Part shown: one piece after another, positions 24,218 through 54,449 of the stretch
Numbering within the stretch: the stretch's first letter is position 1
Layout of the letters: every line of letters starts with the position of its first letter
DNA from: Promethearchaeota archaeon
GTDB taxonomy: Archaea > Asgardarchaeota > Lokiarchaeia > Sigyniarchaeales > SOKP01
Reading direction: 5' to 3'
Length of the DNA: 62,924 nt
Assembly (NCBI GenBank): GCA_030603385.1
Contig: JAUVXW010000026.1
Span: 1 to 62,924 of the forward strand
Program-made: the position numbers and the translations under genes
Notes under the pieces: model-generated
What the model saw: only the letters and a program-made list of their open reading frames with translations
Told to the model about the DNA's origin: nothing
Database searches by the model: none

Positions 24218-24235
24218 TTTTTTTTCTCTTTATAT
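24218..24235 (+). promoter_or_regulatory. T-tract/TATA promoter variant (TTTTTTTTCTCTTTATAT) upstream of the 24295 gene
   Basis: Resembles the motif repeated at 29.7-54.5 kb; GGTGA SD at 24281-24285. Confidence 0.45.
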
Positions 24236-24294
24236 GGATTTATAAATAGATTAACTTATTGATATTTTAGGAGTAAATTTGGTGAAGGGAATAA

Positions 24295-24504
24295 ATGGAT
24301 TATTCAGAAACTTTTTTTGAGATGCTTAAGGTTCTTCAACGTACTTACAGAAAGTTCCCTAAATTTATGATTGAAATTATGGCTGAAAACTACGGCATTC
24401 CCATTAAAGAGATTAAACCATTGCTAAATAAATTCAGGAAAAAAGGGATTTTGCTTATAATGAAAGACGAAGGGTATACTTTTACGTTAAATAAAAATGT
24501 TTAA
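24295..24504 (+). CDS. Small winged-helix-like protein, paralogue of the C-terminal domain of 50166..50687
   Basis: YRKFPKFMIEIMAENYGIP..E.K.L..KFRKKGIL matches YKKFPIYIIEVMADNYGIP..ELK.L..NFQKQGIL. Confidence 0.8.
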   Translation: MDYSETFFEMLKVLQRTYRKFPKFMIEIMAENYGIPIKEIKPLLNKFRKKGILLIMKDEGYTFTLNKNV

Positions 24505-24581
24505 ATTTTAAAATCCAAATGAAAACTATTTTTTTCTGTTCAATTAAAAAAAGAAGACGTGTAAAAAATTAGTAATTAAAA

Positions 24582-26492
24582 TTATTCTATCATTTTCAGA
24601 AATTCTTCTTCTGTAATGATTTTGGTACCTTGTCCTTGGGCTTTTACATACTTAGCTGTTGGCTCATCTGAGTTAGTCACTAAATAGGATAAATTCGCGA
24701 CTACTCCGCTTTTCGCTTGACCGCCATGGTCCCTTACAAGTTGCTCTGCTTCTGCTCTTTTCATGGCCTCTAATTTCCCAGTAAAACAAAAAGTCATACC
24801 TTCAAATTTTCCTCCCGTTTTCTTCACCTCCTCTATTGTAATTTTATTTGAATTTAATACTTCCTTCATTTGTGGATAAAGTTTTTCAACCCCTTCATGT
24901 AACTGCTGGGCTGTGATTTCAGCAAATCCATCAACTTGAGACAGTTGGAAAATAGAAGCATCTTTTATTTTGCCCAAGGTATCAAATCCTGCATCTACGA
25001 CTCGTTGAGTGAGATCCTCTCCAATGTTTTCAATATCAAATCCGCCAATGAATCGTGCTAATGGTACATTTTTAACAGCCAACAGGTTGTCTAATGCTTT
25101 TTTTGCCGAAGTTTCTTTTACTCCCTCAAATTGTGTTAAATGTGCAACTTCAAGTTTGTACAAATCAGCAATAGTCTTTACTTTCCCTGAGTCAAATAAT
25201 GGTTTTAACATTAATTTTTCACTAAAATGCTTTACGTTTAGTTTATTAATCCACTTTACTAATCGATGATATGCTCTCTTTGGACACGCTTCGTTTGGAC
25301 AGTACAATCTTGTACCTTCATTGATGAGTTTGGTTTTACATTCCTCACATATAGTAGGAATAGGGATCTCTTTTGCATCTGAAGGTGTTTTAATTACTCG
25401 CTCGATCTTAGGGATAATATCTCCTCGTTTGCTGATAAACACTTCAGAGCCGATTTTCAATTTTAAATCCCCAATTAGATTTGGATTTGCTAAACTTGCT
25501 CTTGATACGGTAGTTCCCATTAATCTCACAGGATCAACAATAGCAATAGGGGTATAATTTTGGCCGCTAATACTCCATTCCACATCAAGCAACGTAGTTT
25601 CGATTTCTTCAGCTTGGAATTTAAAGGCAATTTGTTTCATAGGTTTTGCTCGTTTCATGTCTTCTAAATCGATTGCTTTCCCCTTAATCACTAATCCATC
25701 GATATCAAATTCTAGAGTATCGCGTCTGTTGGTCATGACATCCTCTCTAATATTAATTACTTCTTGAGGAGAATGTACTGTCTTGGTAGGAATTGTCGGG
25801 AATCCTTCTTCTTTTAACCATTTTAACTTTTGAATCTCACTCTGAAAAGTTACATCATCACCAATACTGAATGCATCATAGAATACTAAGTTTAAATCTC
25901 CACTTCCGATTCCATCTTTTCTTCTTACCAACCCTGAAGCCGCATTCCTACAATTTTGCTTATCGTTATATTTCCTCTCAAAAACATCATGAAATAGCAA
26001 AATTTCGGCACGAGTAGCACCTGTAAATTTAGTTTTGAGCTTAGGGATGAATCCTTTCATATTAATAACGTTCGCTGAAACATCATCTCCGATTTTTCCA
26101 TCCCCTCTTGTTAGGGCGTATTGGAAAATACCATCTTCGTATTGAAGTTCAATACTAATCCCGTCAAGCTTAAATTGGATGAGGAACGTCTTAAAATTTC
26201 GCTTCCTTGCCCATTTTAAGAATTCTTGAGGGTTAGTAACTTTATCTTGAGAAGTCATTGGAATAATATGTTCTCGCTTTGTAAAAAGTTCTGAAGAATC
26301 TACACCAATCTTGAATAATATTGGGTTTTCTGGATCAAGTTTGTGAAGCTCATCTTCAAAAGTATCGTATTTGACATCGGAAATTTCTGGTTGTTCATTG
26401 TAATACAGATATCGATGACGCTTTATTTCTTCAACAAGATAGTTAATTCTTTCTTGATTTGATTTTTGTCTTTCGAGCATGATTACCCTCAA
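24582..26492 (-). CDS. ligA: NAD-dependent DNA ligase
   Basis: KLDG adenylation motif, TRGDG, DGLVIK, RGDIIP, C4 Zn finger, HhH and BRCT (FCFTGKL). Confidence 0.95.
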   Translation of the reverse strand: MRVIMLERQKSNQERINYLVEEIKRHRYLYYNEQPEISDVKYDTFEDELHKLDPENPILFKIGVDSSELFTKREHIIPMTSQDKVTNPQEFLKWARKRNFKTFLIQFKLDGISIELQYEDGIFQYALTRGDGKIGDDVSANVINMKGFIPKLKTKFTGATRAEILLFHDVFERKYNDKQNCRNAASGLVRRKDGIGSGDLNLVFYDAFSIGDDVTFQSEIQKLKWLKEEGFPTIPTKTVHSPQEVINIREDVMTNRRDTLEFDIDGLVIKGKAIDLEDMKRAKPMKQIAFKFQAEEIETTLLDVEWSISGQNYTPIAIVDPVRLMGTTVSRASLANPNLIGDLKLKIGSEVFISKRGDIIPKIERVIKTPSDAKEIPIPTICEECKTKLINEGTRLYCPNEACPKRAYHRLVKWINKLNVKHFSEKLMLKPLFDSGKVKTIADLYKLEVAHLTQFEGVKETSAKKALDNLLAVKNVPLARFIGGFDIENIGEDLTQRVVDAGFDTLGKIKDASIFQLSQVDGFAEITAQQLHEGVEKLYPQMKEVLNSNKITIEEVKKTGGKFEGMTFCFTGKLEAMKRAEAEQLVRDHGGQAKSGVVANLSYLVTNSDEPTAKYVKAQGQGTKIITEEEFLKMIE

Positions 26493-26984
26493 TTAATAGG
26501 TTTTAGTCTTAAAGTTTATTATTCCACCCAAACTTAAAAACTTAATTAGGGGGTAAAGGATAGTTAGCAAATTCAAAATTTAAAAAAAATGAGGGAATGG
26601 GATTTGTAATAAATTAAATTAGAATTATTGTGTCAATTTGGGTGGTTACAAATCTAAGTAATGGGCTTTAAATATTTTCATACTATTATTCTATTAAATT
26701 TTCTTAAGATAAATGTTCTATGGTTGTAGGTATTTCTTGTTTGACTGTATAAGGTTTAATAATTTATGTTTGAGATATCTTCCTTGTCTTTTTAATATGG
26801 GTTTATTAGGATTTTCGGTAAGAATATTTAAGATGGTTAAAATTCTTTATAAAAATTGATTTTTGTATTAATTACTTTAAAAAAGGTAGAAGAATTAAAT
26901 ACAAAGATGTTAAATATTTATACATAAATTTCATAGTTAGTCTAATTATTTTTTTGAAAAGTTAAAACAAATTCAAAAAGATAT

Positions 26985-29725: not shown

Positions 29726-29741
29726 AATTTTTCTTTAAATA
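29726..29741 (+). promoter_or_regulatory. Cluster promoter motif AATTTTTCTTTAAATA
   Basis: About 45 nt upstream of the 29786 ATG; identical to the copy at 43056-43071. Confidence 0.7.
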
Positions 29742-29785: not shown

Positions 29786-30040
29786 ATGAATATTAGGCAA
29801 ATAGTAAATAAAAATAAAATAAGGAGAATATTGCATTCTAGAATGAGACTTCGTGAGGTCTATAGGAAAGCATACTGGTTAGAATTTGAAAATGAAAGTA
29901 TTCTGAGTTTCTTAGCTAAATATAATGTAGTGATGAGCAGGCAGGAATCTTCTTCGAATATTCCAAGGGATACAAAAGTTCAAGATTATATTAATATAGA
30001 TAACCAGCCCGAAATTGTTATTGATATAATCGAATTATAA
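29786..30040 (+). CDS. Hypothetical protein (84 aa, basic N-terminus)
   Basis: ORF preceded by the cluster promoter motif; no recognisable domain. Confidence 0.55.
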   Translation: MNIRQIVNKNKIRRILHSRMRLREVYRKAYWLEFENESILSFLAKYNVVMSRQESSSNIPRDTKVQDYINIDNQPEIVIDIIEL

Positions 30041-32230: not shown

Positions 32231-32779
32231 CTAACTAATACTACCGAGTTTGTCAGAGAAAATTTCTTTCTTTAGCTCTTTAATATGTTCTTTTATTTCT
32301 CTCTCTGACATTTTTAACATTCTTTGGGTTGATTGGTTTTGCTCAATTTCTTCTTTTATTTTCATGGCAAATTTACTGAGCTGAAGGAAAATAACTCCTA
32401 AATTCACCTCATTATCGGAAAGTAAAACGACTAATATGTCGCGCTTCCCCTTTTTATGAAGCTCAACAGCTCCGATTGACTTAACGAACAACCGCATATC
32501 ATTATAAATTATTGTTGCTCTTTCAAGAGAATCAGATTCAAAAAAATCCTGCCCTTGTCGTGCAACACCATATAGAGCTGCGCCAATAGAGCTTAAATCC
32601 CAATAATTCAGCTTACGGTCAAAACGAGAATCGATGGCTATAATTTTTGCGTCTTGATCGATTGCAATTAGACCATAGATATATCCTCTGCGAGTTAATT
32701 TCCCATAGTTATACCTTATATCATCCAACACTTCAGTTATACTATTTTTATATAACACTTTTGGAATGTGGTTTACCAT
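32231..32779 (-). CDS. Roadblock/LC7 (MglB-like) protein with C-terminal helix
   Basis: IAIDQDAKIIA..LSSIGAALYG..ILVVLLSDNEVNLGVI roadblock pattern; adjacent to the MglA-like gene. Confidence 0.75.
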   Translation of the reverse strand: MVNHIPKVLYKNSITEVLDDIRYNYGKLTRRGYIYGLIAIDQDAKIIAIDSRFDRKLNYWDLSSIGAALYGVARQGQDFFESDSLERATIIYNDMRLFVKSIGAVELHKKGKRDILVVLLSDNEVNLGVIFLQLSKFAMKIKEEIEQNQSTQRMLKMSEREIKEHIKELKKEIFSDKLGSIS

Positions 32780-32832: not shown

Positions 32833-32850
32833 TATTTAAAGAAAAAAATT
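32833..32850 (-). promoter_or_regulatory. Cluster promoter motif AATTTTTTTCTTTAAATA
   Basis: 54 nt upstream of the roadblock ATG. Confidence 0.7.
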
Positions 32851-32859: not shown

Positions 32860-33429
32860 CTACTTTAATCCTAATTTATTTCGGGTTCTATGAAATGCAT
32901 AGGCACTACAATTACAAAAAACTCTTAAATTAGTTTGTATAATTTTTTTTTCATGCTCTTTATCATTTAAATCTGTTACAAATACAACAACCGCAAGCTG
33001 CGTGGTAAATTGAGGTAAAAAGCAATGTTTTTCAAGATTATTTTTGAGGATTCTTGCGTTCTCTTTGGCTCGAGGGTAGTCAAATATTGGAGCAAATCGA
33101 TGGAGTTTATGCAAATAAATTTGTAGTTTTCTAAGACTTTTTGTATAGCCATATGTAAATGAATAGCTTCGAAGGAATCTTCTAAAATATACTAGGTTAA
33201 CTAAAAACTTGCTTATTACAGGATGGATAAGATTAACGGGTAGATCAATACTCTTAGCTATAGCCTTATACTCTTGAGATGTTAAAGCTCTGATATTTTG
33301 AGGGTGTGAAATAAAACAAACTTCACGAAACAGATAGTTTAACACGATTTTCTCAACTACTTGTTGTGATCTCCCTATAGTTGTTAATGGTGAAATCCAA
33401 GAGTAATCTTTTTTAACTATTTGAGTCAT
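32860..33429 (-). CDS. Hypothetical protein with C-terminal TFB-like cyclin/HTH repeat
   Basis: TTQLAVVVFVTD...IIQTNLRVFCNCSAYAFHRTRNKL parallels the TFB pattern [31 protein letters not shown]. Confidence 0.55.
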   Translation of the reverse strand: MTQIVKKDYSWISPLTTIGRSQQVVEKIVLNYLFREVCFISHPQNIRALTSQEYKAIAKSIDLPVNLIHPVISKFLVNLVYFRRFLRSYSFTYGYTKSLRKLQIYLHKLHRFAPIFDYPRAKENARILKNNLEKHCFLPQFTTQLAVVVFVTDLNDKEHEKKIIQTNLRVFCNCSAYAFHRTRNKLGLK

Positions 33430-33478: not shown

Positions 33479-33495
33479 TATTTAAATGAAAAAAT
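33479..33495 (-). promoter_or_regulatory. Cluster promoter variant ATTTTTTCATTTAAATA
   Basis: 50 nt upstream of the 33429 ATG. Confidence 0.55.
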
Positions 33496-33526: not shown

Positions 33527-34621
33527 CTAAATGATCTTATCCAAGGTAAGTTGTATTGATTTTGGTCTATCTTGTAACTTAAGAAAATAATCTCTACATT
33601 TCTGGTAGTTAGAGACCAACTTCTCTAAATTATTTTCTACTCGCTCTCTGTTAAGGTGATGCTCCTTGCATAATAAATCTACTACATTTGGTTTGTTAGG
33701 GAGATTCCAATAGAAATTTTCTGTTGATTTGTTCACTTCAGGAAACAGAAATATTTTTCTTACTGTTTTAATAACTTCAATAGTTAAAGTGCTAACATCA
33801 TATTTTTCATTTACTGAAGTAATGACATTTTCTATTTGTTTGTGGTTCTTGATATACTTTAAAGCTTTTTTAGGACCTATCCCCTTTATTCCTGGAAAGT
33901 AATCTGTGCCAACCAATAATGCCAAATCAACTAATTGAAATTGATTGATCTCTAATTCTTTCAAGTTTTTTCGCAAATCAACGCTCAATGGAGTTATTTT
34001 GGTATAGGTCCATTTTCCTTGAACTTTTCTTCGCAATGATTTTGAAAGATTTTGTATCATATTAGGGCATCCAAACAAAAGCGAATCAAAATCTTGAGAA
34101 TTGGAATAGTGTGCAATGCCTTCTTTTACTAGATAAGCACATTGAGATTCTGCTGAAGCTGGAGAATCTATATAAATTACTCCAAGTGCCCCAAGCAATT
34201 GCTTTGATTCCAATATGATATTTTGCCACAGATATTCTTTACTTAAAGCAATTTTTCTAGCTGCGTTCTTATCCCCGCTTTTAATTGCTTCTTCATACCA
34301 TTTCTGTGTAAATCTAAAATCATTAAGTTGATCTTTTGTAATTAACTTTTTAAGCTCAGAATCGCGACCGTCAAAACAAAAAATAGGGAATATTTTCTTC
34401 GTGTAATAGAAATTGATTCGGTAGAGAAGGCCATATAAATGCGAAATTGGTCTTTGGGTTCTGTCTAATATCAACCCAGCATAGGTGCCATCTGGATTTT
34501 TTCGAGCAAAATTGAACAAACCCATAATGATATTTGGAGCATCGATTGCGATAATTTTTCCTCCTAACGTTTGAAAATCAAGTACTTTTCGTAGTATGAT
34601 GTCTTGAAGTTTAACTCCCAT
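33527..34621 (-). CDS. fen1: Flap endonuclease 1 (divergent paralogue)
   Basis: MGV start, IDA, FDG, SQDFDSLLFG, GTDYFPGIKGIGPKKA and C-terminal PIP-like QLTLDKI. Confidence 0.9.
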   Translation of the reverse strand: MGVKLQDIILRKVLDFQTLGGKIIAIDAPNIIMGLFNFARKNPDGTYAGLILDRTQRPISHLYGLLYRINFYYTKKIFPIFCFDGRDSELKKLITKDQLNDFRFTQKWYEEAIKSGDKNAARKIALSKEYLWQNIILESKQLLGALGVIYIDSPASAESQCAYLVKEGIAHYSNSQDFDSLLFGCPNMIQNLSKSLRRKVQGKWTYTKITPLSVDLRKNLKELEINQFQLVDLALLVGTDYFPGIKGIGPKKALKYIKNHKQIENVITSVNEKYDVSTLTIEVIKTVRKIFLFPEVNKSTENFYWNLPNKPNVVDLLCKEHHLNRERVENNLEKLVSNYQKCRDYFLKLQDRPKSIQLTLDKII

Positions 34622-34643: not shown

Positions 34644-34660
34644 TTAATAAAGAAAAAAAA
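34644..34660 (-). promoter_or_regulatory. Cluster promoter variant TTTTTTTTCTTTATTAA (leaderless fen1)
   Basis: TATA box ends 23 nt before the fen1 ATG; may double as terminator for the upstream small ORF. Confidence 0.55.
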
Positions 34661-34683: not shown

Positions 34684-34743
34684 CTACCATCCTTTCATCA
34701 TATGGTATAACCGGGTTAGTAAAGTAAAAATCTTAAACTTCAT
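34684..34743 (-). CDS. Putative 19-aa peptide MKFKIFTLLTRLYHMMKGW
   Basis: Below the ORF-track cutoff. GGTGA SD 4 nt upstream, own promoter motif at 34793-34809, T-tract downstream. Confidence 0.5.
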   Translation of the reverse strand: MKFKIFTLLTRLYHMMKGW

Positions 34744-34792
34744 AATTCACCTTTTTCTAGTAATTAAAGGTGAACCATAGGACATGTGAAAA

Positions 34793-34809
34793 TATTTAAA
34801 CAAAAAATT
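34793..34809 (-). promoter_or_regulatory. Cluster promoter variant AATTTTTTGTTTAAATA
   Basis: 50 nt upstream of the 19-aa ORF. Confidence 0.6.
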
Positions 34810-34838: not shown

Positions 34839-35084
34839 CTAATTTTCATCTTCAAGGTCTTCCATTATGGAATCAAAAAATTTTTTGGCTTTTTCAGGAT
34901 CTTTAAGTTCCTTGAATGAATCGAAAAAACCACCCATCTCTGTAAAAGCCAATATTTCGTCATCGGGTATGACTCCAATTTGTTTTTTGTCAAATTCCAA
35001 TAAACAATCTGGACATTCGATTGAGTCTGGATACTCCATAACCTTTTTTGTCTTACATCGAGGGCAATAATACTTTTTCGCCAT
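34839..35084 (-). CDS. Small zinc-ribbon protein (probable start MAKKYYC at 35084)
   Basis: CPRC...CPDC with acidic tail. Confidence 0.7.
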   Translation of the reverse strand: MAKKYYCPRCKTKKVMEYPDSIECPDCLLEFDKKQIGVIPDDEILAFTEMGGFFDSFKELKDPEKAKKFFDSIMEDLEDEN

Positions 35085-35202
35085 AGGTCCGATAAAACCT
35101 ATAAAAATGTATTTGGTAGCTAAAGATAAGTTGATTATACATATAAAACAATGTGTTGTTAGGATTTTCATTGCATACATATCATACATTGCAAGATAAA
35201 CC

Positions 35203-35254
35203 TATTTAAATAAAAATTTGGCTACTAATCGTTTACGTTTTTCCTTTAAAAATA
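35203..35254. promoter_or_regulatory. Back-to-back divergent cluster promoters: AAATTTTTATTTAAATA (-, 35203-35219) and TTTTTCCTTTAAAAATA (+, 35238-35254)
   Basis: Both have the T-tract upstream of the TATA box relative to their gene; there is no upstream same-strand gene to terminate. Confidence 0.6.
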
Positions 35255-35301: not shown

Positions 35302-35664
35302 ATGAAAAAAGAAAAATATTACCTTCTTAAACCCGAGAAGAATTCAAAATGGGTGGCCTATACTTTCATTGGGATAATAGTTTTTATAGTAATCTACTTT
35401 CCCTTCTTTGCGGTCAACTTGCGTTATCAATTAGGTGCGGTATTCTCAAAGATATTCGATACATTCGGAGTGGCGTGTTTGACGATTGGTAGTGCTATGA
35501 CAGCGATTAGTATATTAAGCTTATTTATAAGTAAATCAATAAACACACGATGGTTTATTCTAGGAATCGTCTTACTGTGGATTGGATGCTGGTGTACTGG
35601 AAGTGTGCTCAACATATTTGGGATCATTATAGGGAACGAGACATCAAATCCTGGATATCACTAA
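35302..35664 (+). CDS. Hypothetical 3-TM membrane protein
   Basis: Three hydrophobic segments. Confidence 0.7.
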   Translation: MKKEKYYLLKPEKNSKWVAYTFIGIIVFIVIYFPFFAVNLRYQLGAVFSKIFDTFGVACLTIGSAMTAISILSLFISKSINTRWFILGIVLLWIGCWCTGSVLNIFGIIIGNETSNPGYH

Positions 35665-35697: not shown

Positions 35698-36363
35698 TCA
35701 ATAAAGAAATGGGATTAATTTTTTAGTGTTTTTTTTATATTCTTCGAATTTTTCACCAAATTTTTTTTCCAGTATTCTTTCTTCTTCATTAATCCTCATT
35801 CTAATTAATAAAAAGTAATAAACAAACATAATAATGAGAGTAATGATACATCTAAAAACAAGGCAGAATCCAATAGTTGCAATTAAACCCCCGGAATACA
35901 TGGGATTTCGAATATAATTATAAACTCCCTGAGTAATGAGTTGATGATCCTCTTCAGTAATTAATTCACCAGTTCCAAACCGTCCTAATTGAGCTCGAGC
36001 AACAATTATAAGCAACCCACCAGAAATATAGAGACTGAAACCTACATAACTTATAATAATATTGTCCCAAAAAGGAATTAGCTGGGATATAAACAACTTA
36101 TTCTCATAAAAGGCTCCAATTAAAAAAAAGGGAGATAATAGCAACATGGTTAGTATCAAAAAGTCAAACAGCTTTGAGACATTTCTTTGCTGAGGAATAG
36201 ACCGTAATAACGTATCCACAAGCGTTATCATATAAGCTGTAAGTAAGTACAGAACATATAAAGGAATTGAATAGATCTCTGGTACAAATAATAGATAGAA
36301 TATGTTCTGATAGATTACATAAAGAAATATAAAAAGAGCAAGCTTTTTTCCAAAATCTTTCAT
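35698..36363 (-). CDS. Isoprenylcysteine carboxyl methyltransferase (ICMT/Ste14)-family membrane methyltransferase
   Basis: HQLITQGVYNYIRNPMYSG, RINEEERIL..KFG and LIPFLY motifs. Confidence 0.85.
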   Translation of the reverse strand: MKDFGKKLALFIFLYVIYQNIFYLLFVPEIYSIPLYVLYLLTAYMITLVDTLLRSIPQQRNVSKLFDFLILTMLLLSPFFLIGAFYENKLFISQLIPFWDNIIISYVGFSLYISGGLLIIVARAQLGRFGTGELITEEDHQLITQGVYNYIRNPMYSGGLIATIGFCLVFRCIITLIIMFVYYFLLIRMRINEEERILEKKFGEKFEEYKKNTKKLIPFLY

Positions 36364-36478: not shown

Positions 36479-36700
36479 TCAATGATAGACATGAAAATAT
36501 TTGAAACCTGTAGAGGACCCACAGAGAATTAGTAACACTACTGATCCTACGATAACACCAATCATTTTATGTCGTTGAAATTGTCCTAGAAAAAGCCATC
36601 CAATAATCCCTACAATCAATCCTAATGCTCCTACAAGAGATCCTAATGCAATTAAGAATTCAATCGACTCAGCAACAGCATCAAAATAGTCAAATATCAT
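36479..36700 (-). CDS. Small 2-TM protein, VirB2/CedA1-pilin-like architecture (tentative)
   Basis: 73 aa; two Gly-rich hydrophobic helices joined by the short basic loop QFQRHK. Confidence 0.6.
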   Translation of the reverse strand: MIFDYFDAVAESIEFLIALGSLVGALGLIVGIIGWLFLGQFQRHKMIGVIVGSVVLLILCGSSTGFKYFHVYH

Positions 36701-36724: not shown

Positions 36725-36767
36725 TATATAAAGAAAAATTTGGAGTCGCAACTTTTTCCTTTAAATA
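36725..36767. promoter_or_regulatory. Back-to-back divergent cluster promoters: AATTTTTCTTTATATA (-, 36725-36740) and TTTTTCCTTTAAATA (+, 36753-36767)
   Basis: 25 nt to the 36700 ATG and 47 nt to the 36814 ATG. Confidence 0.7.
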
Positions 36768-43055: not shown

Positions 43056-43071
43056 TATTTAAAGAAAAATT
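43056..43071 (-). promoter_or_regulatory. Cluster promoter motif AATTTTTCTTTAAATA (leaderless)
   Basis: TATA box ends 22 nt before the 43034 ATG. Confidence 0.72.
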
Positions 43072-43354: not shown

Positions 43355-43373
43355 AACCGATAGCTTTAAAAAG
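43355..43373 (+). promoter_or_regulatory. Canonical archaeal BRE-TATA (AACCGATAGCTTTAAAAAG) of the divergent tfb
   Basis: CCGA-type purine-rich BRE directly before TTTAAAA, about 56 nt upstream of the ATG. Confidence 0.6.
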
Positions 43374-43428: not shown

Positions 43429-44655
43429 ATGACGATATACAAAACCTCAGTTACATTAGATCATACAAATCTAAAATGTGATTTGTGTGGTTCTGACGAT
43501 ATTGTTGAGACTGTTGAAGGTTATGTGTGTAGGGCATGTGGAATTGTCCAAACTCTACAAAAACTTCAATATGATCAACCATACAAAGCAGATGTACTAC
43601 AATATGCACGAAGATTAGGAAGTACACAATTAGGGAATAAGAGAGAACGGTTGGGCTCCCCTCATTCTAGAGTCTTAAAGCGAATGAGTAAGTACAACAA
43701 GATAAACGACAATGAAAAAATTGTTTATACTAAGGCATATAGGGAGATTTCAAGAATCCTTTGCAGTTTAGGTCTGGAAGATTATAATTCCCTTAAAGAA
43801 ATGACTATGGTTAATTTTAAAGAAATACGAGCTAAATTAAGAGCAGGCTCAAAATACAGGAATGTAGAGAAGCTTGTTGCTATCATTCTATATTTTAGGT
43901 TCAAAATTGATAATATCTCAGTGACAAATACCGATATATTTGAGAACACAGAACTAACCAAAAAAGAATTTAATGACTTCTTTATGCAAGTTCGCGATTA
44001 CGTTCCTAATTATCTGATAAGAGATAGACAAAAATATATCTCCCAGAAATTGTTAGAGATTACCAATCATTTTGGGCTTGAGATGCCCTATTATTTTCTC
44101 GCAAAGAAGGTTTTGTATCGTCTCTGGGAAGGTATTAAAAACACTACAGATAATGTCATAGCAGGATTGTGTGCGTCAATTACAGCCCTCTGTGAGTATA
44201 AAGAACAAGTTAGAATAAGTTCAATTTGTGAATTGGTCAATATTAGGATGAGTACTATCCAGCTTCAGGTTAAAAAGAAAATTTTTGAAAGGTTTGGGAT
44301 TCTAGGATTCTCAACTTTGGTACATTCTGCCGATTTATTAAAAAAGTTTTTAGTAAAAATCGGGCTGATAGAAGACAAAGAACCTGACATCGAATTGATT
44401 TCAGAAGAAGTAGAAGATGATGATATTATTCATGTTCAATTAGGAAATGCAGTTCAGATATTTAATCCATCAAATGAGCATTATCTTTTTGAAAGTTTTG
44501 ATCAAAATGGAACGATTACCTACATATACCTTGAGGTATATAATCATACTAATACCAAGACTAAATTTAAGAAAAAGTCAAAGACAAATGGTGTATGGTT
44601 TAAGCTAGGTCTTGAGGAATATTTTCCATATAAGGGACCTCCGGTAACCATTTGA
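43429..44655 (+). CDS. tfb: Divergent transcription initiation factor TFB/TFIIB paralogue with C-terminal extension
   Basis: Zn ribbon CDLC..VCRACGIV, two cyclin-like repeats and an extra domain of about 100 aa. Confidence 0.8.
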   Translation: MTIYKTSVTLDHTNLKCDLCGSDDIVETVEGYVCRACGIVQTLQKLQYDQPYKADVLQYARRLGSTQLGNKRERLGSPHSRVLKRMSKYNKINDNEKIVYTKAYREISRILCSLGLEDYNSLKEMTMVNFKEIRAKLRAGSKYRNVEKLVAIILYFRFKIDNISVTNTDIFENTELTKKEFNDFFMQVRDYVPNYLIRDRQKYISQKLLEITNHFGLEMPYYFLAKKVLYRLWEGIKNTTDNVIAGLCASITALCEYKEQVRISSICELVNIRMSTIQLQVKKKIFERFGILGFSTLVHSADLLKKFLVKIGLIEDKEPDIELISEEVEDDDIIHVQLGNAVQIFNPSNEHYLFESFDQNGTITYIYLEVYNHTNTKTKFKKKSKTNGVWFKLGLEEYFPYKGPPVTI

Positions 44656-44731: not shown

Positions 44732-44748
44732 ATTTTTTTCTTTAAATA
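44732..44748 (+). promoter_or_regulatory. Cluster promoter motif ATTTTTTTCTTTAAATA
   Basis: About 40 nt upstream of the 44785/44794 start. Confidence 0.7.
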
Positions 44749-44784: not shown

Positions 44785-47403
44785 GTGAGTTTTATGCATA
44801 AAAAATTTGTTGTAATTGTGTTAATTGTGATTTCTACACTTCTAGGTGTTAGCGGTTACTTTGTGAATACCCAATATGAAGAAAATACACCATTTGAAAT
44901 CCCTCCTGAGAATGTGAACATGGCCTCAATGACAAATTATAACAATATCAATTCCATATTTGCTGAAAAAATTAGCGATTATGCTACATATGGCTTTTTT
45001 CCCCAGATATATGAACCTTCTTTACAAGCGACGTACTATGCACTTTATACATTAGAGGCTATAGGAAAGCGGGATCAGGTAAATGAAACACAGATAACAA
45101 ATTATATCATGAGCAACTACAATTCTAGCACTCATTTATTCATGGACAAATATGCGTATAGGTATCTCGATACTGACTTTACTCAAGATTCTCATTATCG
45201 TCCACTTACTTCTATTCTTGAAGTAAACTGTTATGCGATCCTTTCATTAGAACTTTTTAATGCTCTTAATTTAATTGATATAGGCGCATCAATAGACTTT
45301 ATATGGAGTTGCTATAATCCCCTCACATCTGGATTTATTGGGCAACCTTACAGTCCTTCCTTAGAGTATTATGCGAAAATCTCTACAATGGACAATACAT
45401 ATTACGCAATTAAGAATTTAGATGTATTAATGGACAATTGGGTTGGGTATACTCAGGAACGCAATGATTTAATTCAATATATTAACTCATTACAAATTAC
45501 TGACGATGGTAATCCAGAATTTGGAGGATTTTTGAATGATAACGAGATAAGCTTTAGCTCCTTGAAGCTGTATACTGATACTAATATGTTTTCTTCTTAT
45601 TATTGCATAAAAAGTTTAGAAATATTTGGTATGGTCGGAACTATTAACTATGCTAGTTTTTACACGTTCTTAGAGCAATTATATGTTGCAGATGAGAACT
45701 ACTTTCAGTATATGGTTTTTGGGACACCATTAGATGCAAATATCGTTACCACAGCCCTTGGATTAGACCTCTCTCGTATTACAGGGTTCTCTTCTTATAA
45801 TGAGACCGGCATCTTAGACTTCATTTTCAATACCCGGAATAGTCTTGGTATTTGGGATGGCTCTACTGAGATTCAATACCATGAAATAATAGATACTTCT
45901 CAAATTATTCGAGCATTAAAGGATTGTAGTCAATTGTCAAGATTGAATTTTACCGACACTAACCAAATAACAACCTCTATTATAGAGTATTTTTTTATGG
46001 ATCAAAGTTTTTCTCTCATATCTATAGATTATCCAACTCTTAATCTTATTAATTCGATTATCACTTCATTTGATTTATATGGGAGACTTCCAGAATTAGA
46101 TTTACAGGAACTTTATTTGAAGATAATAGAATCATATCATGGTCTTACACCGATATATCATGGATTCTGGGCATTTTTAAACGCTGAACTTTATGCAAAT
46201 TCGATAATAGGCTTTCGTTCCTACCCTATTGAGTTTTATACCGAAGGGAATAAAATTCATTTTAAAGAGATTGAATACTTAATTTCTCATAAATCTACCT
46301 TCTATGCATTAAATTCTTTAAAAACTATTTTCAAATTAGATGATTTTGCATTAACTCATAATCTAAATAGACTTATGAATGATATTCTTAATACGCAATT
46401 TCTAAATAGCTCATATCCAGAACAATATGGTGCCTTTTTATGCATATTACCTTATGAAGAATTACGCAGTGAATTTCTAAGTCAAAATATTTATTTTGAA
46501 TATACATATTATGCGATTAAAGCCCTTGAACTTCTTGTCGAACAGTTAAATATAGGAGACCTTACCTTTTTGGACCTTAATATGACAGCCTTACAGTCAT
46601 ATATCAATACTCATATTGTAGAAACTTCAGAACAGTTATACTTTAACCCTCACTATACCGATGATTATGAAACTATTTTGCAAAATACCTATTATATGAT
46701 ATATATACTAAAATCGATTGATATATTTAATTTGGATGACCAAAAAATAAGAAACTTAATTGTACAAAACCTAAATTATAGCAATATCAAAAACATTTAT
46801 TATAGTTATAAAGTAGCAAAATTATTGGATTTTAATTTTGAATTTGATATTGAGTTGGTACAACATTTAGTAGGGGATATCTTTTCTCAAGAATTAAATG
46901 AGTTTTATCTTACGTCTAAAAGAGAAGAAGTTGATCAAGAAATATTCCTTTGGATCAGCGAAATGGCTTCATTACACAACTATAAAATTATTACTCAATA
47001 CCAAGAAGAAGTTATGCTGGGAAATCATATAACCATCGAAGCTTCACTATCCAACTTGATTCTTTCTTACTTCGATTATAATCTCTCATTTAGCTTCGAA
47101 AGTGCTCAATTAGGGTATTATGAATTTGAGAGAGTAGAAAATAATGAATTTTCACTTAATCTCCATATTCCGCAACGTCCGAGTAATTATCCAAGTGTGA
47201 ATGGGAAGCTATATGCCCTCACTGGCAAGTTTATATTAGCAGAACTTAGTATATCGCTTACTACGGTTTATCCTAAGAAAGTGTATCAAGATGAGATAAA
47301 TAGTGCAGTTGTATTATCCGTCTTATTCATTACTATTCCTGGAGGAGTCATATTTTATTCAGAAAAAAAACTAAAAAAACGAGATTCAGGTATTAATATC
47401 TAA
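44785..47403 (+). CDS. Surface protein with prenyltransferase/squalene-cyclase-like alpha-alpha barrel repeats
   Basis: N-terminal signal and C-terminal TM; repeats ATYYALYTL, NTYYAIKNL, SSYYCIKSL, STFYALNSL, YTYYAIKAL; LQ..GGF. Confidence 0.72.
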   Translation: MSFMHKKFVVIVLIVISTLLGVSGYFVNTQYEENTPFEIPPENVNMASMTNYNNINSIFAEKISDYATYGFFPQIYEPSLQATYYALYTLEAIGKRDQVNETQITNYIMSNYNSSTHLFMDKYAYRYLDTDFTQDSHYRPLTSILEVNCYAILSLELFNALNLIDIGASIDFIWSCYNPLTSGFIGQPYSPSLEYYAKISTMDNTYYAIKNLDVLMDNWVGYTQERNDLIQYINSLQITDDGNPEFGGFLNDNEISFSSLKLYTDTNMFSSYYCIKSLEIFGMVGTINYASFYTFLEQLYVADENYFQYMVFGTPLDANIVTTALGLDLSRITGFSSYNETGILDFIFNTRNSLGIWDGSTEIQYHEIIDTSQIIRALKDCSQLSRLNFTDTNQITTSIIEYFFMDQSFSLISIDYPTLNLINSIITSFDLYGRLPELDLQELYLKIIESYHGLTPIYHGFWAFLNAELYANSIIGFRSYPIEFYTEGNKIHFKEIEYLISHKSTFYALNSLKTIFKLDDFALTHNLNRLMNDILNTQFLNSSYPEQYGAFLCILPYEELRSEFLSQNIYFEYTYYAIKALELLVEQLNIGDLTFLDLNMTALQSYINTHIVETSEQLYFNPHYTDDYETILQNTYYMIYILKSIDIFNLDDQKIRNLIVQNLNYSNIKNIYYSYKVAKLLDFNFEFDIELVQHLVGDIFSQELNEFYLTSKREEVDQEIFLWISEMASLHNYKIITQYQEEVMLGNHITIEASLSNLILSYFDYNLSFSFESAQLGYYEFERVENNEFSLNLHIPQRPSNYPSVNGKLYALTGKFILAELSISLTTVYPKKVYQDEINSAVVLSVLFITIPGGVIFYSEKKLKKRDSGINI

Positions 47404-47408: not shown

Positions 47409-47424
47409 AATTTTTTCTTTTTAT
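47409..47424 (+). promoter_or_regulatory. Cluster promoter variant AATTTTTTCTTTTTAT (leaderless)
   Basis: About 24 nt before the 47448 ATG; could also be a terminator. Confidence 0.45.
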
Positions 47425-47447
47425 TTATTTAACTCTAGAATCTTATA

Positions 47448-50687: not shown

Positions 50688-50704
50688 AATAAAAACTAAA
50701 AAGG

Positions 50705-50908
50705 CTAAGGCCTAAACTCATTTAATAATATAACTTTATAGAGTGGATGTCTTTTTTTAAAGGGAATCTTCTCTTCCCCTGAATAAATATAACTTTCTTG
50801 ATTTCCAAAAAACAGAGAAAAGGGGACAATAACATTTTTGACTTGAAATGACTCTCTGATATCATACTCAATTTCGTGATTCTTCTTATCAACTGATTTT
50901 GAACTCAT
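50705..50908 (-). CDS. Small hypothetical protein (paralogue of 51282..51506)
   Basis: Shared I.PFS..YIY.G.E.I.F..RHP.Y...LLNEF motif. Confidence 0.75.
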   Translation of the reverse strand: MSSKSVDKKNHEIEYDIRESFQVKNVIVPFSLFFGNQESYIYSGEEKIPFKKRHPLYKVILLNEFRP

Positions 50909-50947: not shown

Positions 50948-50965
50948 TATTTAAAAGAAAAAATT
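50948..50965 (-). promoter_or_regulatory. Cluster promoter variant AATTTTTTCTTTTAAATA
   Basis: 40 nt upstream of the 50908 ATG. Confidence 0.65.
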
Positions 50966-51229
50966 CTATTCTTTTAGTTTATATTTTAATTTCTTAAGGT
51001 ATAGCTTCATGAAATATCGTTCACTATTACAAAACTCTAACTTTTCTTTTTCGTTTAAGTTTAAGCAGTTTAAGAGAATTGCATGAATTTTTTCGAGAGA
51101 AATTAGATTTTCATCGCAAATCTCTTCTACTTTTTCCGATTCAGATAGTTCCTTAATTTTAATGTTTTCTCGATTTGATGGTTTCTCTGTAGAAAACTTA
51201 CCATTTCGAGATTTACTTTTTAAATCCAT
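50966..51229 (-). CDS. Small hypothetical protein
   Basis: 87 aa, with its own cluster promoter 27 nt upstream. Confidence 0.6.
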   Translation of the reverse strand: MDLKSKSRNGKFSTEKPSNRENIKIKELSESEKVEEICDENLISLEKIHAILLNCLNLNEKEKLEFCNSERYFMKLYLKKLKYKLKE

Positions 51230-51255: not shown

Positions 51256-51273
51256 TATTTAAAGAAAAAAATT
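51256..51273 (-). promoter_or_regulatory. Cluster promoter motif AATTTTTTTCTTTAAATA (leaderless)
   Basis: Identical to the 32833-32850 copy. Confidence 0.7.
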
Positions 51274-51281
51274 GAGAATAA

Positions 51282-51619: not shown

Positions 51620-54163
51620 TTATCTTTTTCCAATAATTTTTTTACATAAATTTATTCCCAAACCTGTTTTCTGATTTAGCGTATAGGGGTTTTCCTTTTT
51701 AACTTGAGATGCGGTATGGTTTCCGGCTTTGTAAAGGACCCTTGCTCGTACTCGCGCAACGTTATCTAAACGTAATACTAAGTCAAATAATTCCTCACGA
51801 ATCCCATAATGTATCCGTATCCGAAGCGTTTCTGACATTTCGGCAACCTTTTCTAACCTGTTACGAATATCAAACCCGCTTGAACTTAGGTTGTTTGCAA
51901 TTATCCCAATAAAGGTAATAATTCTCTCTAAACTATCTCGTACAGAAAAAAGATCACCTGTCATTATGTGATATCTTTCTAAGATATGTTCAATCGGCTC
52001 CTCATCTGTCCATTCAAGAATAGGCTCTAACATCTTATAGTCACGTACTCGAAATTCCGATTTTAACACTTCATAGGCTTCCTTAATTAAATCCCGAAAA
52101 GAGGTTATATTTGTATTCTCTAATTTATATCGAATGAGTACACCTGAAGAAGGATATAGATAGAGCCTAATTATTAGTTTTCCAAACTGGGAGCATTGTA
52201 TTGAGCCGTTATTATTCTTTAATATTAACCCTTTTTCAAACAAGTAATTTAGGATATATTGGTTCTTAATACTTTTTGGAATAATATCTTCAACATATTT
52301 TTGGATATTTACATCAGGAAATTTGATTAAATACAAAAGGAACATGGTAATATGGTCGCAAAATTCAAAGGCAAACTCGTTCTCAACTGCAAAATTATCG
52401 GATATACCATTTTGAAATCCGCAAGAACATTTAATTCCAGTATCAATATCGAATTGACATGAATAGACTCCAAAAGTAGTCTTAACATAGCCCGAAAGGT
52501 TTGAGTTACTACATTTTGTTATTTTAATCTGAGGTTTTTTACTTCTAAGTGTTTGTACTTTTTTCGGATCGGCATGAAGCTTAAGAATATTGACAGGAGA
52601 TATCTCTTTAATCATTAATAACTGCTCAATTGGGATTTGTTGGTCTTTCATCTTATGAGTAATTGTATACCAAAAGTACGTTTTTTCAAAGAAATTCTTG
52701 AGTTTATCCATTGTAATTTCTTGCTCTTCAAATACCCGAAGTAGTACTTGTTCTTTTAAAATATTAATTTTGTTTAATCCAGAAGTGAGATCATTGTATT
52801 TAGCCATGAGTGGACTATTCATCTGGAGTGATTTAAAGTAGTGATCCTCAACCCACATCTTCTCTTCTATGTTCTTTACTAACATAATCCCATAGCCGAC
52901 TGAGTCCAATCCCGGTCTACCCGCCCTCCCTAAGATTTGAAAAACTTCGTTTGATGAGAATGGCTTGAAATAGGAAAATCCATCGCCATTCTCATAGTAT
53001 CCTGAAAAGTTTTTTATATTAAATCCGGATGTGGTATACTTTTTAAAGTCTCGTAAAATAACAACACGGGCAGGTGTGTTGATTCCTGCTGAAAGTGTAG
53101 TCGTACAACATATAACTCTAATAAGCTTACTACGGAAATTATCCTCTATTAATTTTCTTTCGCGTGAAAGGAGGCCAGCATGATGAAACGCGACTCCATG
53201 GGAAAATATCTTACTCAATTCAAGGTTTCCTCCCTTAATCGATGCGATACGCTTAGAGAGCGCTTTTAACACTTTTAACTCAGATTCTTCTAAAAATTTC
53301 TTTACTATTTCCTTAAGATTTTGAGCAGACTGTTGTGCCGTCTTACGCTTATTTAGAAAGATAAGCACTTGTCCTTTATCGTTAAGGGTAGTCTTTACGA
53401 TATGTTTGATAGTAGAGTCTTTATTTTGTGTGGTGTGAATTTTATAATGAAGTGGTACAGGTCTTTCCTCAGATATCACCAAGGTAGTATGGTTCCCAAG
53501 TGATGTGAGCCATGCATTAAAGAACTCTGGATTCGCAATTGTGGCACTTAACCCAATTATTTGAGGGTGGTGAAAGAATTCATTCAATCGTACAATGAGA
53601 GATTCCAAACGAGGTCCTCTGTCTGATTCTCCGATGATATGGACCTCATCAATAATGATTGTAGAAAACTCAGAAATCCACTCCTTATCATAGAAGTTCC
53701 TTATGATCGAATCCATTTTTTCATAGGTAGTAACGATAATGTCAGCTTTTTCAAGTTTAGAATCGTCTATGTTATAATCTCCAATAGATATTTCTACTTT
53801 TACACCATATTTTCCATAGGCTTTTTTGAAGTGGAAGAATTTCTCAGTAGCTAATGCTTTAAAGGGCACTAAATATACAGATTTGCCGAACTTCTGAAAC
53901 ACATTATTTACCGCGCATAATTCACCAATGAGAGTTTTCCCACTACCAGAGGGGGCACATACTAAAAACGATTTGCGAAAAAATAGTCCTTTCCGTATGG
54001 CTTCTTTTTGAATTTCGCGTAGTTCAAATATCTTGTTTTCAAATAATACCCGAAGAATGCGCTTATCTGGAATATATTTATAAATTTCAGTTTCTTCTAA
54101 AGTCTCCTCTTTTGTACCTTTCCCAGTAAAATCGATTAAACTCATATCTATGGGTATAGACAT
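51620..54163 (-). CDS. hel308: Hel308/Ski2-like DExH helicase with inserted SWIM zinc finger (true start possibly 54145)
   Basis: APSGSGKT, DEVH, GLSAT, FHHAGL, TLSAGINTPA and QILGRAGRPG motifs; CSC...CDH insert; C-terminal RVRARVLY HhH. Confidence 0.85.
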   Translation of the reverse strand: MSIPIDMSLIDFTGKGTKEETLEETEIYKYIPDKRILRVLFENKIFELREIQKEAIRKGLFFRKSFLVCAPSGSGKTLIGELCAVNNVFQKFGKSVYLVPFKALATEKFFHFKKAYGKYGVKVEISIGDYNIDDSKLEKADIIVTTYEKMDSIIRNFYDKEWISEFSTIIIDEVHIIGESDRGPRLESLIVRLNEFFHHPQIIGLSATIANPEFFNAWLTSLGNHTTLVISEERPVPLHYKIHTTQNKDSTIKHIVKTTLNDKGQVLIFLNKRKTAQQSAQNLKEIVKKFLEESELKVLKALSKRIASIKGGNLELSKIFSHGVAFHHAGLLSRERKLIEDNFRSKLIRVICCTTTLSAGINTPARVVILRDFKKYTTSGFNIKNFSGYYENGDGFSYFKPFSSNEVFQILGRAGRPGLDSVGYGIMLVKNIEEKMWVEDHYFKSLQMNSPLMAKYNDLTSGLNKINILKEQVLLRVFEEQEITMDKLKNFFEKTYFWYTITHKMKDQQIPIEQLLMIKEISPVNILKLHADPKKVQTLRSKKPQIKITKCSNSNLSGYVKTTFGVYSCQFDIDTGIKCSCGFQNGISDNFAVENEFAFEFCDHITMFLLYLIKFPDVNIQKYVEDIIPKSIKNQYILNYLFEKGLILKNNNGSIQCSQFGKLIIRLYLYPSSGVLIRYKLENTNITSFRDLIKEAYEVLKSEFRVRDYKMLEPILEWTDEEPIEHILERYHIMTGDLFSVRDSLERIITFIGIIANNLSSSGFDIRNRLEKVAEMSETLRIRIHYGIREELFDLVLRLDNVARVRARVLYKAGNHTASQVKKENPYTLNQKTGLGINLCKKIIGKR

Positions 54164-54172
54164 TTTAAAATA

Positions 54173-54187
54173 ATATAAAGGAAAAAG
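54173..54187 (-). promoter_or_regulatory. Cluster promoter variant CTTTTTCCTTTATAT
   Basis: Only 10 nt from ATG 54163 but 28 nt from ATG 54145, which favours the second Met as a leaderless start. Confidence 0.55.
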
Positions 54188-54236
54188 TCAAATAAAATTC
54201 TTTATTTTGAGTTGTATTTGAAATTAAGGTAAAAAG

Positions 54237-54350
54237 GTGCCCCGTGCCAACCGACGCAAAATCGCGTCTAAAAATCAAAAGGGTAAGATTATAGAGTGTA
54301 ATGAATTACACTACCAAAAGACAAAAATCCAGGGTGTAAGCATGGGGCAT
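54237..54350 (+). ncRNA. Candidate multi-stem structured RNA (~114 nt)
   Basis: Closing stem TGCCCCGTGC (54238-47) / GCATGGGGCA (54340-49) with a G-U pair; internal hairpins GACGC/GCGTC and AGTGTAA/TTACACT; locally GC-rich; T-rich downstream. Confidence 0.55.
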
Positions 54351-54433
54351 AGTTTAATTTTACTTTGTTAAATTAAGACAAAAAATTCCTGTCTTCTAGT
54401 TATGAATAAGACATTAAACAATTTAAATTTCAC

Positions 54434-54449
54434 ATTTTTTCTTTATAAA
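54434..54449 (+). promoter_or_regulatory. Cluster promoter motif ATTTTTTCTTTATAAA (leaderless, heads the 54.5-62.2 kb operon)
   Basis: 29 nt before ATG 54478. Confidence 0.7.

Follow-up and report, generated by a model that had tools for sequence, protein, structure and literature searches.

Archaeal promoters are thought to vary little. Canonically, as in the Pyrococcus woesei TBP-TFBc-DNA complexes (PDB 1D3U, 1AIS), an A/purine-rich BRE lies 5' of the TATA box, and the helix-turn-helix (HTH) of TFB sits directly beside that box in the solved complexes (1D3U). To our knowledge the promoters served by the known paralogues of TFB, whether Sulfolobus TFB2 and TFB3 or those of haloarchaea, are near-canonical. 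The TFBs of the haloarchaeal multi-TFB/TBP networks differ only subtly in promoter preference. The Sulfolobales TFB3 is truncated, acts alongside TFB1 and serves a DNA-damage regulon (Ups pili, Ced DNA importer) for DNA exchange and repair. Sulfolobales TFB2 is tied to the cell-division wave, and its promoters have a TATA box and a BRE similar to those of TFB1, the difference being mainly one of spacing (bioRxiv 10.64898/2026.09.06.749720).

The locus described here lies in a window of 62,924 nt (the whole stretch of DNA that was analysed). Its putative promoters are like the canonical archaeal promoter in that a TATA box of 8 bp (TTTAWATA type) is preceded on its 5' side by a specific element which fixes direction, and in a spacing to the start codon that would fit leaderless or short-leader mRNAs. 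They differ in the element itself, which is A/purine-rich in the canonical case and T6-C here. The gene cluster headed by these promoters also encodes a divergent paralogue of TFB, and a literature search found no paper describing such a pair of T6-C promoter and TFB paralogue. The sites are listed below with their strand, the unit for which each is the putative T-run promoter, the score in bits and the occurrence in related genomes (G numbers; negative numbers are distances from the start codon). The gene of the paralogue and its own TATA box are included.

24219–24234, +: weak, atypical copy, T8-C-TC-TTTATATG, before a 69-aa ORF (24295–24504); 12.4 bits; outside the conserved cluster and with no orthologous counterpart among the relatives.
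29726–29741, +: 84-aa gene (29786–30040); 16.8 bits; same motif at the G004 homologue.
32833–32848, −: operon for a 182-aa protein, an Arf-like GTPase and a 448-aa protein (32779 down to 30191); 20.9 bits; kept at −54 to −61 in five relatives and also at the stand-alone GTPase operon of G006, G009 and G013.
33479–33494, −: 189-aa gene (32860–33429); 16.7 bits; at about −57 in 5 of 6 genomes.
34644–34659, −: FEN1/XPG-like gene (33527–34621; Pfam XPG_I match), with TATA variant TTTATTAA; 11.5 bits; T7-8-C-TTTTTATA at −29 to −33 in relatives.
34793–34808, −: short transcript upstream of fen1, including the conserved TTCACCTTTAA; 19.2 bits; counterparts in G002 and G005.
35203–35218, −: 116-aa gene (34839–35189), divergent pair; 13.9 bits; site also in G002.
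35237–35252, +: 120-aa gene (35302–35664), divergent pair; 14.7 bits; at −56 to −62 in G002, G019, G016 and G017.
36725–36740, −: 73-aa membrane protein gene (36479–36700), divergent pair; 16.7 bits; TATA box at exactly −32 in 7 of 7 genomes.
36752–36767, +: operon for a 105-aa Zn-ribbon protein and a 341-aa protein (36814–38146); 19.4 bits; kept in G002, G019, G016, G017, G005 and G024.
39945–39960, −: RadA/Rad51-like gene (38650–39891; Pfam Rad51, 6.8e-69); 21.6 bits; at −61 to −68 in 7 of 7 genomes.
40101–40116, −: orphan site upstream of the radA promoter; 13.5 bits; kept only in G019, the closest relative.
43056–43071, −: operon for a 258-aa, a 112-aa and a RadB-KaiC-like 235-aa protein (43034 down to 41190), divergent from the TFB gene; 16.8 bits; at −29 in G000, G002 and G019, with counterparts in G017, G005 and G006.
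43365–43372, +: TATA box TTTAAAAA of the paralogue's own promoter, no T-run upstream.
43429–44655, +: divergent TFB/TFIIB-family gene, 408 aa, with Zn ribbon, two cyclin folds and a rewritten recognition helix.
44733–44748, +: 872-aa gene (44785–47403); 20.9 bits; kept in seven relatives.
47410–47425, +: operon for a 200-aa protein, an SF2 helicase of 706 aa and a 173-aa Zn-ribbon protein, with TATA variant TTTTTATT; 17.8 bits; variant shared by G002, G019, G003, G016, G017 and G005.
50949–50964, −: unlisted ORF of ∼66 aa (about 50895 down to 50700); 15.4 bits; counterpart in G002.
51256–51271, −: 87-aa gene (50966–51229); 20.9 bits; at −34 in G000 and G002.
54172–54187, −: Hel308/Ski2-like helicase gene (51620–54163); 17.1 bits.
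54434–54449, +: operon for an HhH membrane protein and proteins of 224, 288 and 1260 aa (54469–61830 and beyond); 19.1 bits; kept in G002, G003, G017 and G006.

A first-pass annotation of the window had described 19 copies of a T-tract plus TATA motif, with the tract always upstream at the BRE position, two spacing classes and no copies at internal operon genes. All 19 were found in the window sequence at the positions and on the strands it gave, and a matrix built from five relatives only, with the window's own genome excluded, recovered every one of them at a score of at least 11 bits. The T6-C plus TATA motif is real. The 19 sites share the pattern (A/T)-T6-(C, less often A or G)-TTTAWATA and each of them faces a gene or a small ORF. 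A consensus drawn from 41 orthologous sites in relatives has A or T at −8, T at −7 to −3 (94–98%) and at −2 (84%), and C (67%), A (20%) or G (12%) at −1, with TTTAWATA next. The BRE position, abutting the 5' side of the TATA box, is occupied by T6-C and not by a purine- or A-rich sequence, and the T-run is on the gene-distal side of the box in all 19 sites and in all of the orthologous sites so that the asymmetric element is directed at the gene. The TATA box is of the TTTAWATA type at every site, and its first T lies either 27–34 nt from the start codon, a leaderless-type distance, or 44–61 nt from it, in which case a Shine-Dalgarno (SD) sequence of the GGTGA/GGAGG type is present; both distances would fit leaderless or short-leader mRNAs. 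Two sites are closer, at 16 and 21 nt, because in-frame ATGs sit a few codons further downstream. Approximately 17 transcription units with roughly 30 genes are headed by the element in the window, and the genes inside operons have SD sequences and no motif. The description of placement, spacing and operon structure given in the first-pass annotation held up.

The motif is very strongly concentrated in the cluster. Using the relatives-built matrix at 15 bits or more, 14 matches were found in the 5,679 nt of intergenic DNA in the cluster and 71 in the 531,510 nt of intergenic DNA outside it, so that the density in the cluster is 18-fold that of the remaining genome. Markov models of order 1–5 give an expectation of 28–37 matches outside the cluster and, when scaled, of only ∼0.3–0.4 inside. 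The earlier statement that the motif occurs almost only in the cluster thus stands as regards the cluster and is slightly overstated as regards the rest of the genome. The ∼35 matches above chance outside the cluster have unrelated genes as neighbours and a few are perfect; one perfect match, C57:621, is not kept in the G012 orthologue. A strict regular expression gave 50 matches in the 3.89 Mb genome, the 10 on this contig all falling between 29.7 and 54.4 kb. The metabolic half of the window (1–24 kb) contained a single weak match to the relatives-built matrix, at 2057.

Orthologous promoters keep both the element and its distance from the start codon even where the proteins are only 35–80% identical. 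Footprinting across G002, G019, G003, G016, G017, G005 and G024, which are non-independent samples, showed the motif kept while the flanking sequence had diverged. In the complete genome G006 the genes of the set are spread over at least four loci (∼203–223, 493, 963 and 2641 kb) and the same units are headed by the motif at each of them. The density of matches is 0.285 per kb in the 49 independent loci which flank the paralogue in other Promethearchaeota MAGs and 0.034 per kb in the part of G000 beyond the cluster, an 8.5-fold enrichment, and in G001 and G012 the motif clusters exactly on the contigs carrying the paralogue. Genomes with the paralogue have on average 17 matches above a reversed-pattern control, and the four genomes lacking both the paralogue and the 182-aa marker have an excess of ∼0 against this control. 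Since relatives retain the motif, even one in which the cluster has been scattered, it is, judged by this sequence conservation, a functional, gene-specific signal, and it probably defines a dedicated core-promoter class. The gene set comprises a RadA paralogue, a RadB/KaiC-like ATPase, a FEN1-like nuclease, two SF2 helicases, an Arf-like GTPase module, HhH and other membrane proteins and small Zn-ribbon proteins. It is an accessory (optional) set conserved in Lokiarchaeia-type Asgard archaea; it was present in 16 of the 24 genomes of the genus-level group, in 1–4 copies per genome, and the genes flanking it vary between genomes.

The protein encoded at 43429–44655 gave nothing in a Pfam search at E ≤0.01, and PF00382 at E ≤1 finds the six canonical TFBs of the genome and not the paralogue. 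Profile comparison by hhalign with these six TFBs gave a probability of 96.9% (E 1.5e-10) over 250 columns, which start at the Zn ribbon and run through the whole of the second cyclin repeat, and a profile search of the PDB gave TFIIB at E 0.011. The N-terminus aligns to the canonical TFB ribbon, cysteines C17, C20, C34 and C37 being invariant in 25 family members, and some homologues carry PF08271. An AF2 model, of moderate confidence only (pLDDT 62.8), shares the core fold of canonical TFB (1d3u_B; TM 0.73, rmsd 3.6 Å), and its top 40 Foldseek matches are all TFIIB, TFB or Brf, with Brf1 and Brf2 included. There is an additional C-terminal domain of about 100 aa, and C-terminal extensions are also found in Brf-type factors. 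The paralogue differs from canonical TFBs in the HTH recognition helix of the second repeat, where the canonical TEVTxRxR becomes MSTIQxQV, invariant in the paralogue's family, with Gln where canonical TFBs have two conserved Arg. On the profile and model evidence it is a genuine, if highly divergent, member of the TFIIB/TFB family, as the first-pass annotation implied, and its recognition helix has been rewritten. Besides the paralogue, the genome encodes six TFBs and four TBPs, any of which could also serve as reader of the element.

The paralogue's own promoter is of a different kind. A TTTAAAA(A/G) box is conserved there and a T-run was absent in all nine genomes examined. The purine-rich BRE that had been proposed in front of this gene is present in distant relatives, as GAAAAGG-TTTAAAA; the sequence in the window is CGATAGC, which is simply not T-rich.

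These observations suggest, with somewhat better than even confidence, a private TFB/promoter pair comparable to a sigma factor and its promoters, in which the T6-C plus TATA class is read by the set's own TFB paralogue. We infer from the sequences that the paralogue is probably the protein that binds the T-run. Since the promoter of the paralogue gene has no T-run, one of the six ordinary TFBs would transcribe this gene first. The paralogue would then bring RNA polymerase to the T-run promoters and the whole set would be turned on together, a two-step cascade like that of a bacterial alternative sigma factor.

It could instead be that T6-C is the operator of a separate activator or repressor acting beside TBP, that an ordinary TFB initiates and that the paralogue has some other role. 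Possible DNA-binding proteins exist among the small uncharacterised products of the cluster (the Zn-ribbon proteins with 105 and 173 aa, and others with 116, 120 and 189 aa), and the large repertoire of general factors in the genome also favours such an arrangement. Moreover the motif is kept at the GTPase operon in G009 and G013, where the paralogue was not found, though these are fragmented assemblies (94% and 92% complete) and its absence may be an assembly gap. A separate regulator is nevertheless unlikely. The element abuts the TATA box at a fixed register, so a second protein would have to displace the TFB-DNA contact, and no candidate co-varies with the motif in the genomes compared. 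The family-invariant change in the paralogue's helix is what would be expected for the reader of an invariant DNA element.

A quite improbable explanation dispenses with a dedicated factor: the T-run would be a DNA-shape element (a rigid A-tract beside TATA), a terminator-promoter module of oligo-T, or both, and the ordinary machinery would give strong or insulated expression. Oligo-T terminates archaeal transcription and 10 of the 19 sites directly follow the stop codon of a co-directional gene. The ∼2-fold excess over the Markov expectation outside the cluster is also what would be expected from frequent juxtaposition of terminators and TATA boxes in short spacers. However, the other nine sites are in divergent spacers where there is nothing to terminate. 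The pairs 35203/35238, 36725/36753 and 54173/54434 exclude a role as terminator only and bear out the first-pass argument that a terminator makes no sense there. The length of six Ts, the C after the run and the register with TATA are all kept across genomes. The element is restricted to a single gene set even where this is dispersed in G006, and a T-run is absent from the TATA-like boxes of 1,473 further genes. At the ten tandem spacers the T-run may have a dual role, terminating the upstream transcript as well as serving as promoter.

An origin of the cluster as a mobile element or provirus that integrated and brought the motif along as its own promoter style would suit the patchy distribution, the variable flanks and a per-residue coding potential below that of metabolic genes on the same contig, but is very improbable given that no integrase, attachment site, tRNA or Rfam RNA was found in the window and no relative of the paralogue on IMG/VR viral contigs, that the G+C of the cluster is that of the host, that the chromosomes of G006, G009 and G013 have the set in separate pieces each with the motif, and that mobility alone leaves the promoter reading unexplained and overlaps with the main explanation.

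Returning to the pairing of paralogue and T6-C, the likeness to Sulfolobales TFB2 and TFB3 is that a paralogue of a general factor would switch on a defined gene set, and the DNA exchange and repair content of the TFB3 regulon resembles the recombination and membrane content of the present set. The difference is that the present factor is full-length with a C-terminal domain and that the promoter element has been rewritten outright. The haloarchaeal networks and the eukaryotic Brf1, Brf2 and Rrn7/TAF1B are alike in duplication of the TFIIB fold and specialisation for promoter subsets, the eukaryotic paralogues differing in that they serve different polymerases. Bacterial alternative sigma factors, such as ComX of the streptococcal competence regulon, would be alike in logic only: an initiation factor specific to the regulon, itself expressed from an ordinary promoter, and a private element shared by DNA-processing and recombination genes. 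They belong to an unrelated protein family with unrelated polymerase contacts and there is no homology.

A wider version of the proposal, which we hold to be about evenly balanced, is an orthogonal initiation system of Lokiarchaeia-type Asgard archaea in which a full-length TFIIB-family paralogue, with its helix rewritten and a C-terminal domain added, reads T6-C as an ‘anti-BRE’ and controls a regulon of its own with roles in DNA recombination, in membrane/GTPase functions and possibly in DNA exchange, factor and element co-evolving between families. In the sister family, where co-variation could be followed in very few genomes, G038 has a more divergent paralogue with the helix ASTVYSHIK and promoters of the form T8-10-G(C)-TTTTATAAAC, and in G028 neither the paralogue nor a T-run at the GTPase operon was seen. 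A BRE position wholly rewritten, with the matching factor encoded alongside, would be a clean and testable case in which the archaeal lineage nearest to eukaryotes partitions its promoters in a sigma-like manner with eukaryote-type parts. If true, no prokaryotic example of a TFIIB paralogue that has a promoter grammar of its own would be clearer, and these archaea, the closest to eukaryotes, would offer a model for the split of the TFIIB family into promoter-class specialists. It would also delimit ∼30 mostly uncharacterised genes, those for large membrane proteins among them, as one co-regulated system and provide an orthogonal promoter/factor pair ready for future Asgard genetics.

A minor observation concerns the Hel308/Ski2-like helicase gene. 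Translation probably begins 18 nt further downstream, at the second in-frame ATG, and in several relatives the gene is instead co-transcribed with the gene upstream.

All 19 copies of the T-run motif reported in the first-pass annotation were found to be present as described. Since circularity was to be avoided, a weight matrix was trained only on 41 sites that precede orthologous genes in five relatives (G003, G005, G016, G017 and G024). In the matrix consensus an A/T precedes T6, followed by C (A or G in a minority of sites) and TTTAWATA, and the two T positions not forced by the locating regular expression were still 94–96% T in the 41 sites. When the genome carrying the window (G000) was scanned, every one of the 19 sites scored at least 11 bits, and the metabolic half of the window gave one weak match only. 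There were 14 matches of at least 15 bits in the 5.7 kb of spacer within the cluster versus 71 in the remaining 531 kb of intergenic DNA, where counts of intergenic and promoter positions are approximate as the genes were called with a crude codon-usage ORF picker. Markov models of order 1–5 predicted 28–37 matches outside the cluster and, scaled, ∼0.4 inside it. The genome-wide frequency check proposed in the first-pass annotation, run with the matrix and these backgrounds, showed the motif to be concentrated in the cluster ∼18-fold relative to the genome and at least ∼35-fold relative to chance. The further statement that the motif occurs almost only in the cluster is correct as to strong concentration but not as to exclusivity, because ∼35 extra matches lie elsewhere.

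No second island of the motif was seen in G000 outside the cluster, and the top outside matches precede unrelated genes (bactofilin-like, thioesterase, amidohydrolase, DHDPS and IFT52/ABC-aux-like). One perfect outside site, at position 621 of contig C57, is not conserved at the orthologue in G012. Neither regex-anchored profiles nor a home-made EM procedure on 1,473 upstream regions cleanly gave the consensus of the ordinary promoters of G000; all that emerged was a weak TTTAA and, at −2 to −4, a small bias towards A.

The genes sharing the T-run promoters form a set of ∼33 kb that starts at 29.7 kb and runs to the contig end; its synteny is kept in seven relatives (G002, G019, G003, G016, G017, G005 and G024) with protein identities of 30–93%. 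At the heads of transcription units, the distance from motif to start codon is nearly fixed and the flanking sequence has diverged; the motif lies at −32 for the 73-aa gene in all seven genomes, at about −57 for the 189-aa gene and at −61 to −68 for radA. Genes internal to operons lack the motif and carry Shine-Dalgarno sequences instead, as had been proposed. In G006, a complete genome of 3.34 Mb, the genes are scattered over four or more loci far apart from one another, each with the motif ahead of the same units; the motif is thus not just a compositional peculiarity of a single imported stretch. A role solely as a terminator, already doubted in the earlier reading, is untenable since 9 of the 19 sites sit in divergent spacers; in the ten tandem spacers the T-run may double as a terminator. 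The T-run motif is very probably a conserved, regulon-specific promoter class.

The metagenome-assembled genome G000 comprises 3.89 Mb in 58 contigs (31% G+C, 94% completeness), the window being one entire contig, C48. Homologues of its proteins were found in Asgard genomes labelled Promethearchaeota/Promethearchaeia (Lokiarchaeia-type) or, in some cases, Hod-, Hermod-, Thor- or Odinarchaeota. Acyl-CoA metabolism genes occupy 1–24 kb. The region from 24 to 62.9 kb encodes an NAD-dependent ligase, an Arf-like GTPase, a FEN1/XPG-like nuclease, a RadA/Rad51-like protein with an extra HhH, a RadB/KaiC-like ATPase, two SF2 helicases and membrane proteins (HhH and others), along with many proteins that have no Pfam family. 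A provirus origin is unsupported because no tRNA, Rfam RNA or integrase was found in the window and no viral relatives of the TFB paralogue were found in IMG/VR. Three genes of the cluster require separate mention.

Genes of the cluster distinguished by conservation or promoter
32231–32779: 182-aa protein, no Pfam family; best conserved of the set, 77–98% identity in the genus-level group
35698–36363: ICMT/PEMT-type methyltransferase gene, no T-run promoter; full counterpart in G002 only
40267–41100: enoyl-CoA hydratase gene, no T-run promoter; counterpart absent from the clusters of relatives

The 182-aa protein may be a GTPase partner as its gene is always first in its operon, ahead of that for the Arf-like GTPase. 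The hydratase and methyltransferase genes look like local insertions; partial matches to the latter occur elsewhere in G006, G009 and G028. The ligase gene (LigA) and an 886-aa gene also lack the T-run motif and have no counterparts in the clusters of the relatives.

The 408-aa product of the ORF at 43429–44655 (+) is one of a family with over 170 members in Asgard archaea, and some of these carry a TFIIB-like annotation. Single-sequence searches with this paralogue against the PDB and Pfam gave no match and its identity required profile and fold searches. The AF2 model (pLDDT 62.8, best at residues 95–235) matched only TFIIB, TFB, Brf1 and Brf2 structures, with a TM score of 0.73 against the P. 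woesei TFB core on BRE-TATA DNA. Profile-profile alignment of the family with the six canonical TFBs of G000 gave 96.9% probability over a span that starts at the Zn ribbon and reaches through the second cyclin repeat. By model and alignment the paralogue is a TFIIB-family protein. The first-pass idea that the 189-aa protein (32860–33429) is a second TFB-like cyclin protein found no support, with an hhalign probability of 0.2% against the paralogue family and nothing significant in Pfam.

The recognition helix is an invariant T-E-V-T-x-R-x-R in the six ordinary TFBs, and the helix aligned to it in the paralogue is M-S-T-I-Q-x-Q-V, invariant in 25 family members of 42–81% identity. Residues ∼310–408 form an acidic linker and then an extra beta-rich C-terminal domain of ∼100 residues, of low pLDDT, with a nearly invariant K-G/D-P-P end. 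The promoter of the paralogue gene itself is never of the T-run type; a TTTAAAA(A/G) box is conserved, preceded by GAAAAGG in distant relatives. The canonical BRE in G000 is taken to be purine-rich, mainly on established knowledge and on this promoter in the relatives.

The paralogue gene has a patchy distribution: of 24 genomes sampled from the genus-level group, 16 carry it, in up to four copies. The contigs that carry the gene in G001 and G012 are exactly those on which the strict pattern accumulates. At 49 loci (764 kb) from other genomes, which were not part of matrix training, 0.285 matrix matches per kb were found versus 0.034 per kb in G000 outside the cluster. Strict matches exceeded a reversed-pattern control by a mean of 17 in genomes with the paralogue gene and by ∼0 in four genomes without either it or the 182-aa marker, figures that are descriptive and not tests because kin are not independent. 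The TFB paralogue of the cluster is somewhat more likely than not to be the reader of the T-run promoters. Another general factor is a possible reader, given that G000 also encodes six canonical TFBs (on C34, C17, C4, C24 and C38) and four TBPs (on C17, C1, C55 and C31), an expansion resembling that of haloarchaea. Furthermore, the GTPase operon retains the motif in G009 and G013 although the paralogue was not found in these fragmented assemblies (94% and 92% completeness). A predicted complex of TBP (from C17) with the paralogue core (residues 92–312) scored 0.00 and carries no weight either way.

Pairing of the paralogue with these promoters would follow the same logic as an alternative sigma factor, and the closest archaeal parallel is the TFB2 and TFB3 regulons of Sulfolobales. 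TFB2 promoters there are reported to have BRE and TATA elements like those of TFB1, spacing being the main difference (bioRxiv 10.64898/2026.09.06.749720), whereas in the cluster promoters the upstream element is rewritten. A literature search found no description of the T-run promoter class or of the paralogue family. Regulons of TFB paralogues are already known; the one proposed here would be a variant of them and is directly testable.

A diverged version of the set is present in the sister family. In the complete genome G038 the paralogue is only ∼25% identical, its helix reads ASTVYSHIK and the set promoters read T8-10-G(C)-TTTTATAAAC. The GTPase operon promoter has T8-CG-TTTAAAAG in G037 and a T8-G element in G035; in G028 neither a paralogue nor a T-run at this operon was seen. 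These few genomes are consistent with co-change of factor and element. Upstream of the G038 ORFs 20954–21739 and 25500–25811 (joined loci L036–L038), a long T-run lies ∼12 nt upstream of the TATA box. The similar spacers of these two displaced promoters, CATAGATTCTGA and CTTCAGATTTTGA, suggest an alternative architecture or an extra operator.

Several individual promoters in the window bear on transcripts and start codons.

Transcripts and starts at individual T-run promoters
34684–34809 (−): short region upstream of fen1, driven by the orphan T-run promoter at 34793
about 50700–50895 (−): ORF of ∼66 aa, ∼47 nt downstream of the T-run promoter 50949–50964
51620–54163 (−): helicase gene, first ATG just 16 nt from the TATA box

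The region upstream of fen1 contains TTCACCTTTAA, complementary to the GGTGA Shine-Dalgarno sequence and kept in G002 and G005; it may give rise to a leader or small RNA instead of the 19-aa peptide proposed in the first-pass annotation. The ∼66-aa ORF was too short for the ORF list, which was cut at 80 aa, and the gene caller did not pick it up; its promoter is kept in the corresponding spacer of G002. Translation of the helicase probably begins at a second in-frame ATG 18 nt further on, which lies 34 nt from the TATA box, a leaderless-type spacing. The gene at 34839–35189 has ATGs at 21, 30 and 39 nt from the TATA box, and there too a later in-frame ATG is probably the true start. Elsewhere in G000 two giant ORFs were noted, C3:19347–63845 (∼14,800 codons) and C41:11349–38702 (∼9,100 codons), the second with T-run/TATA matches just upstream.
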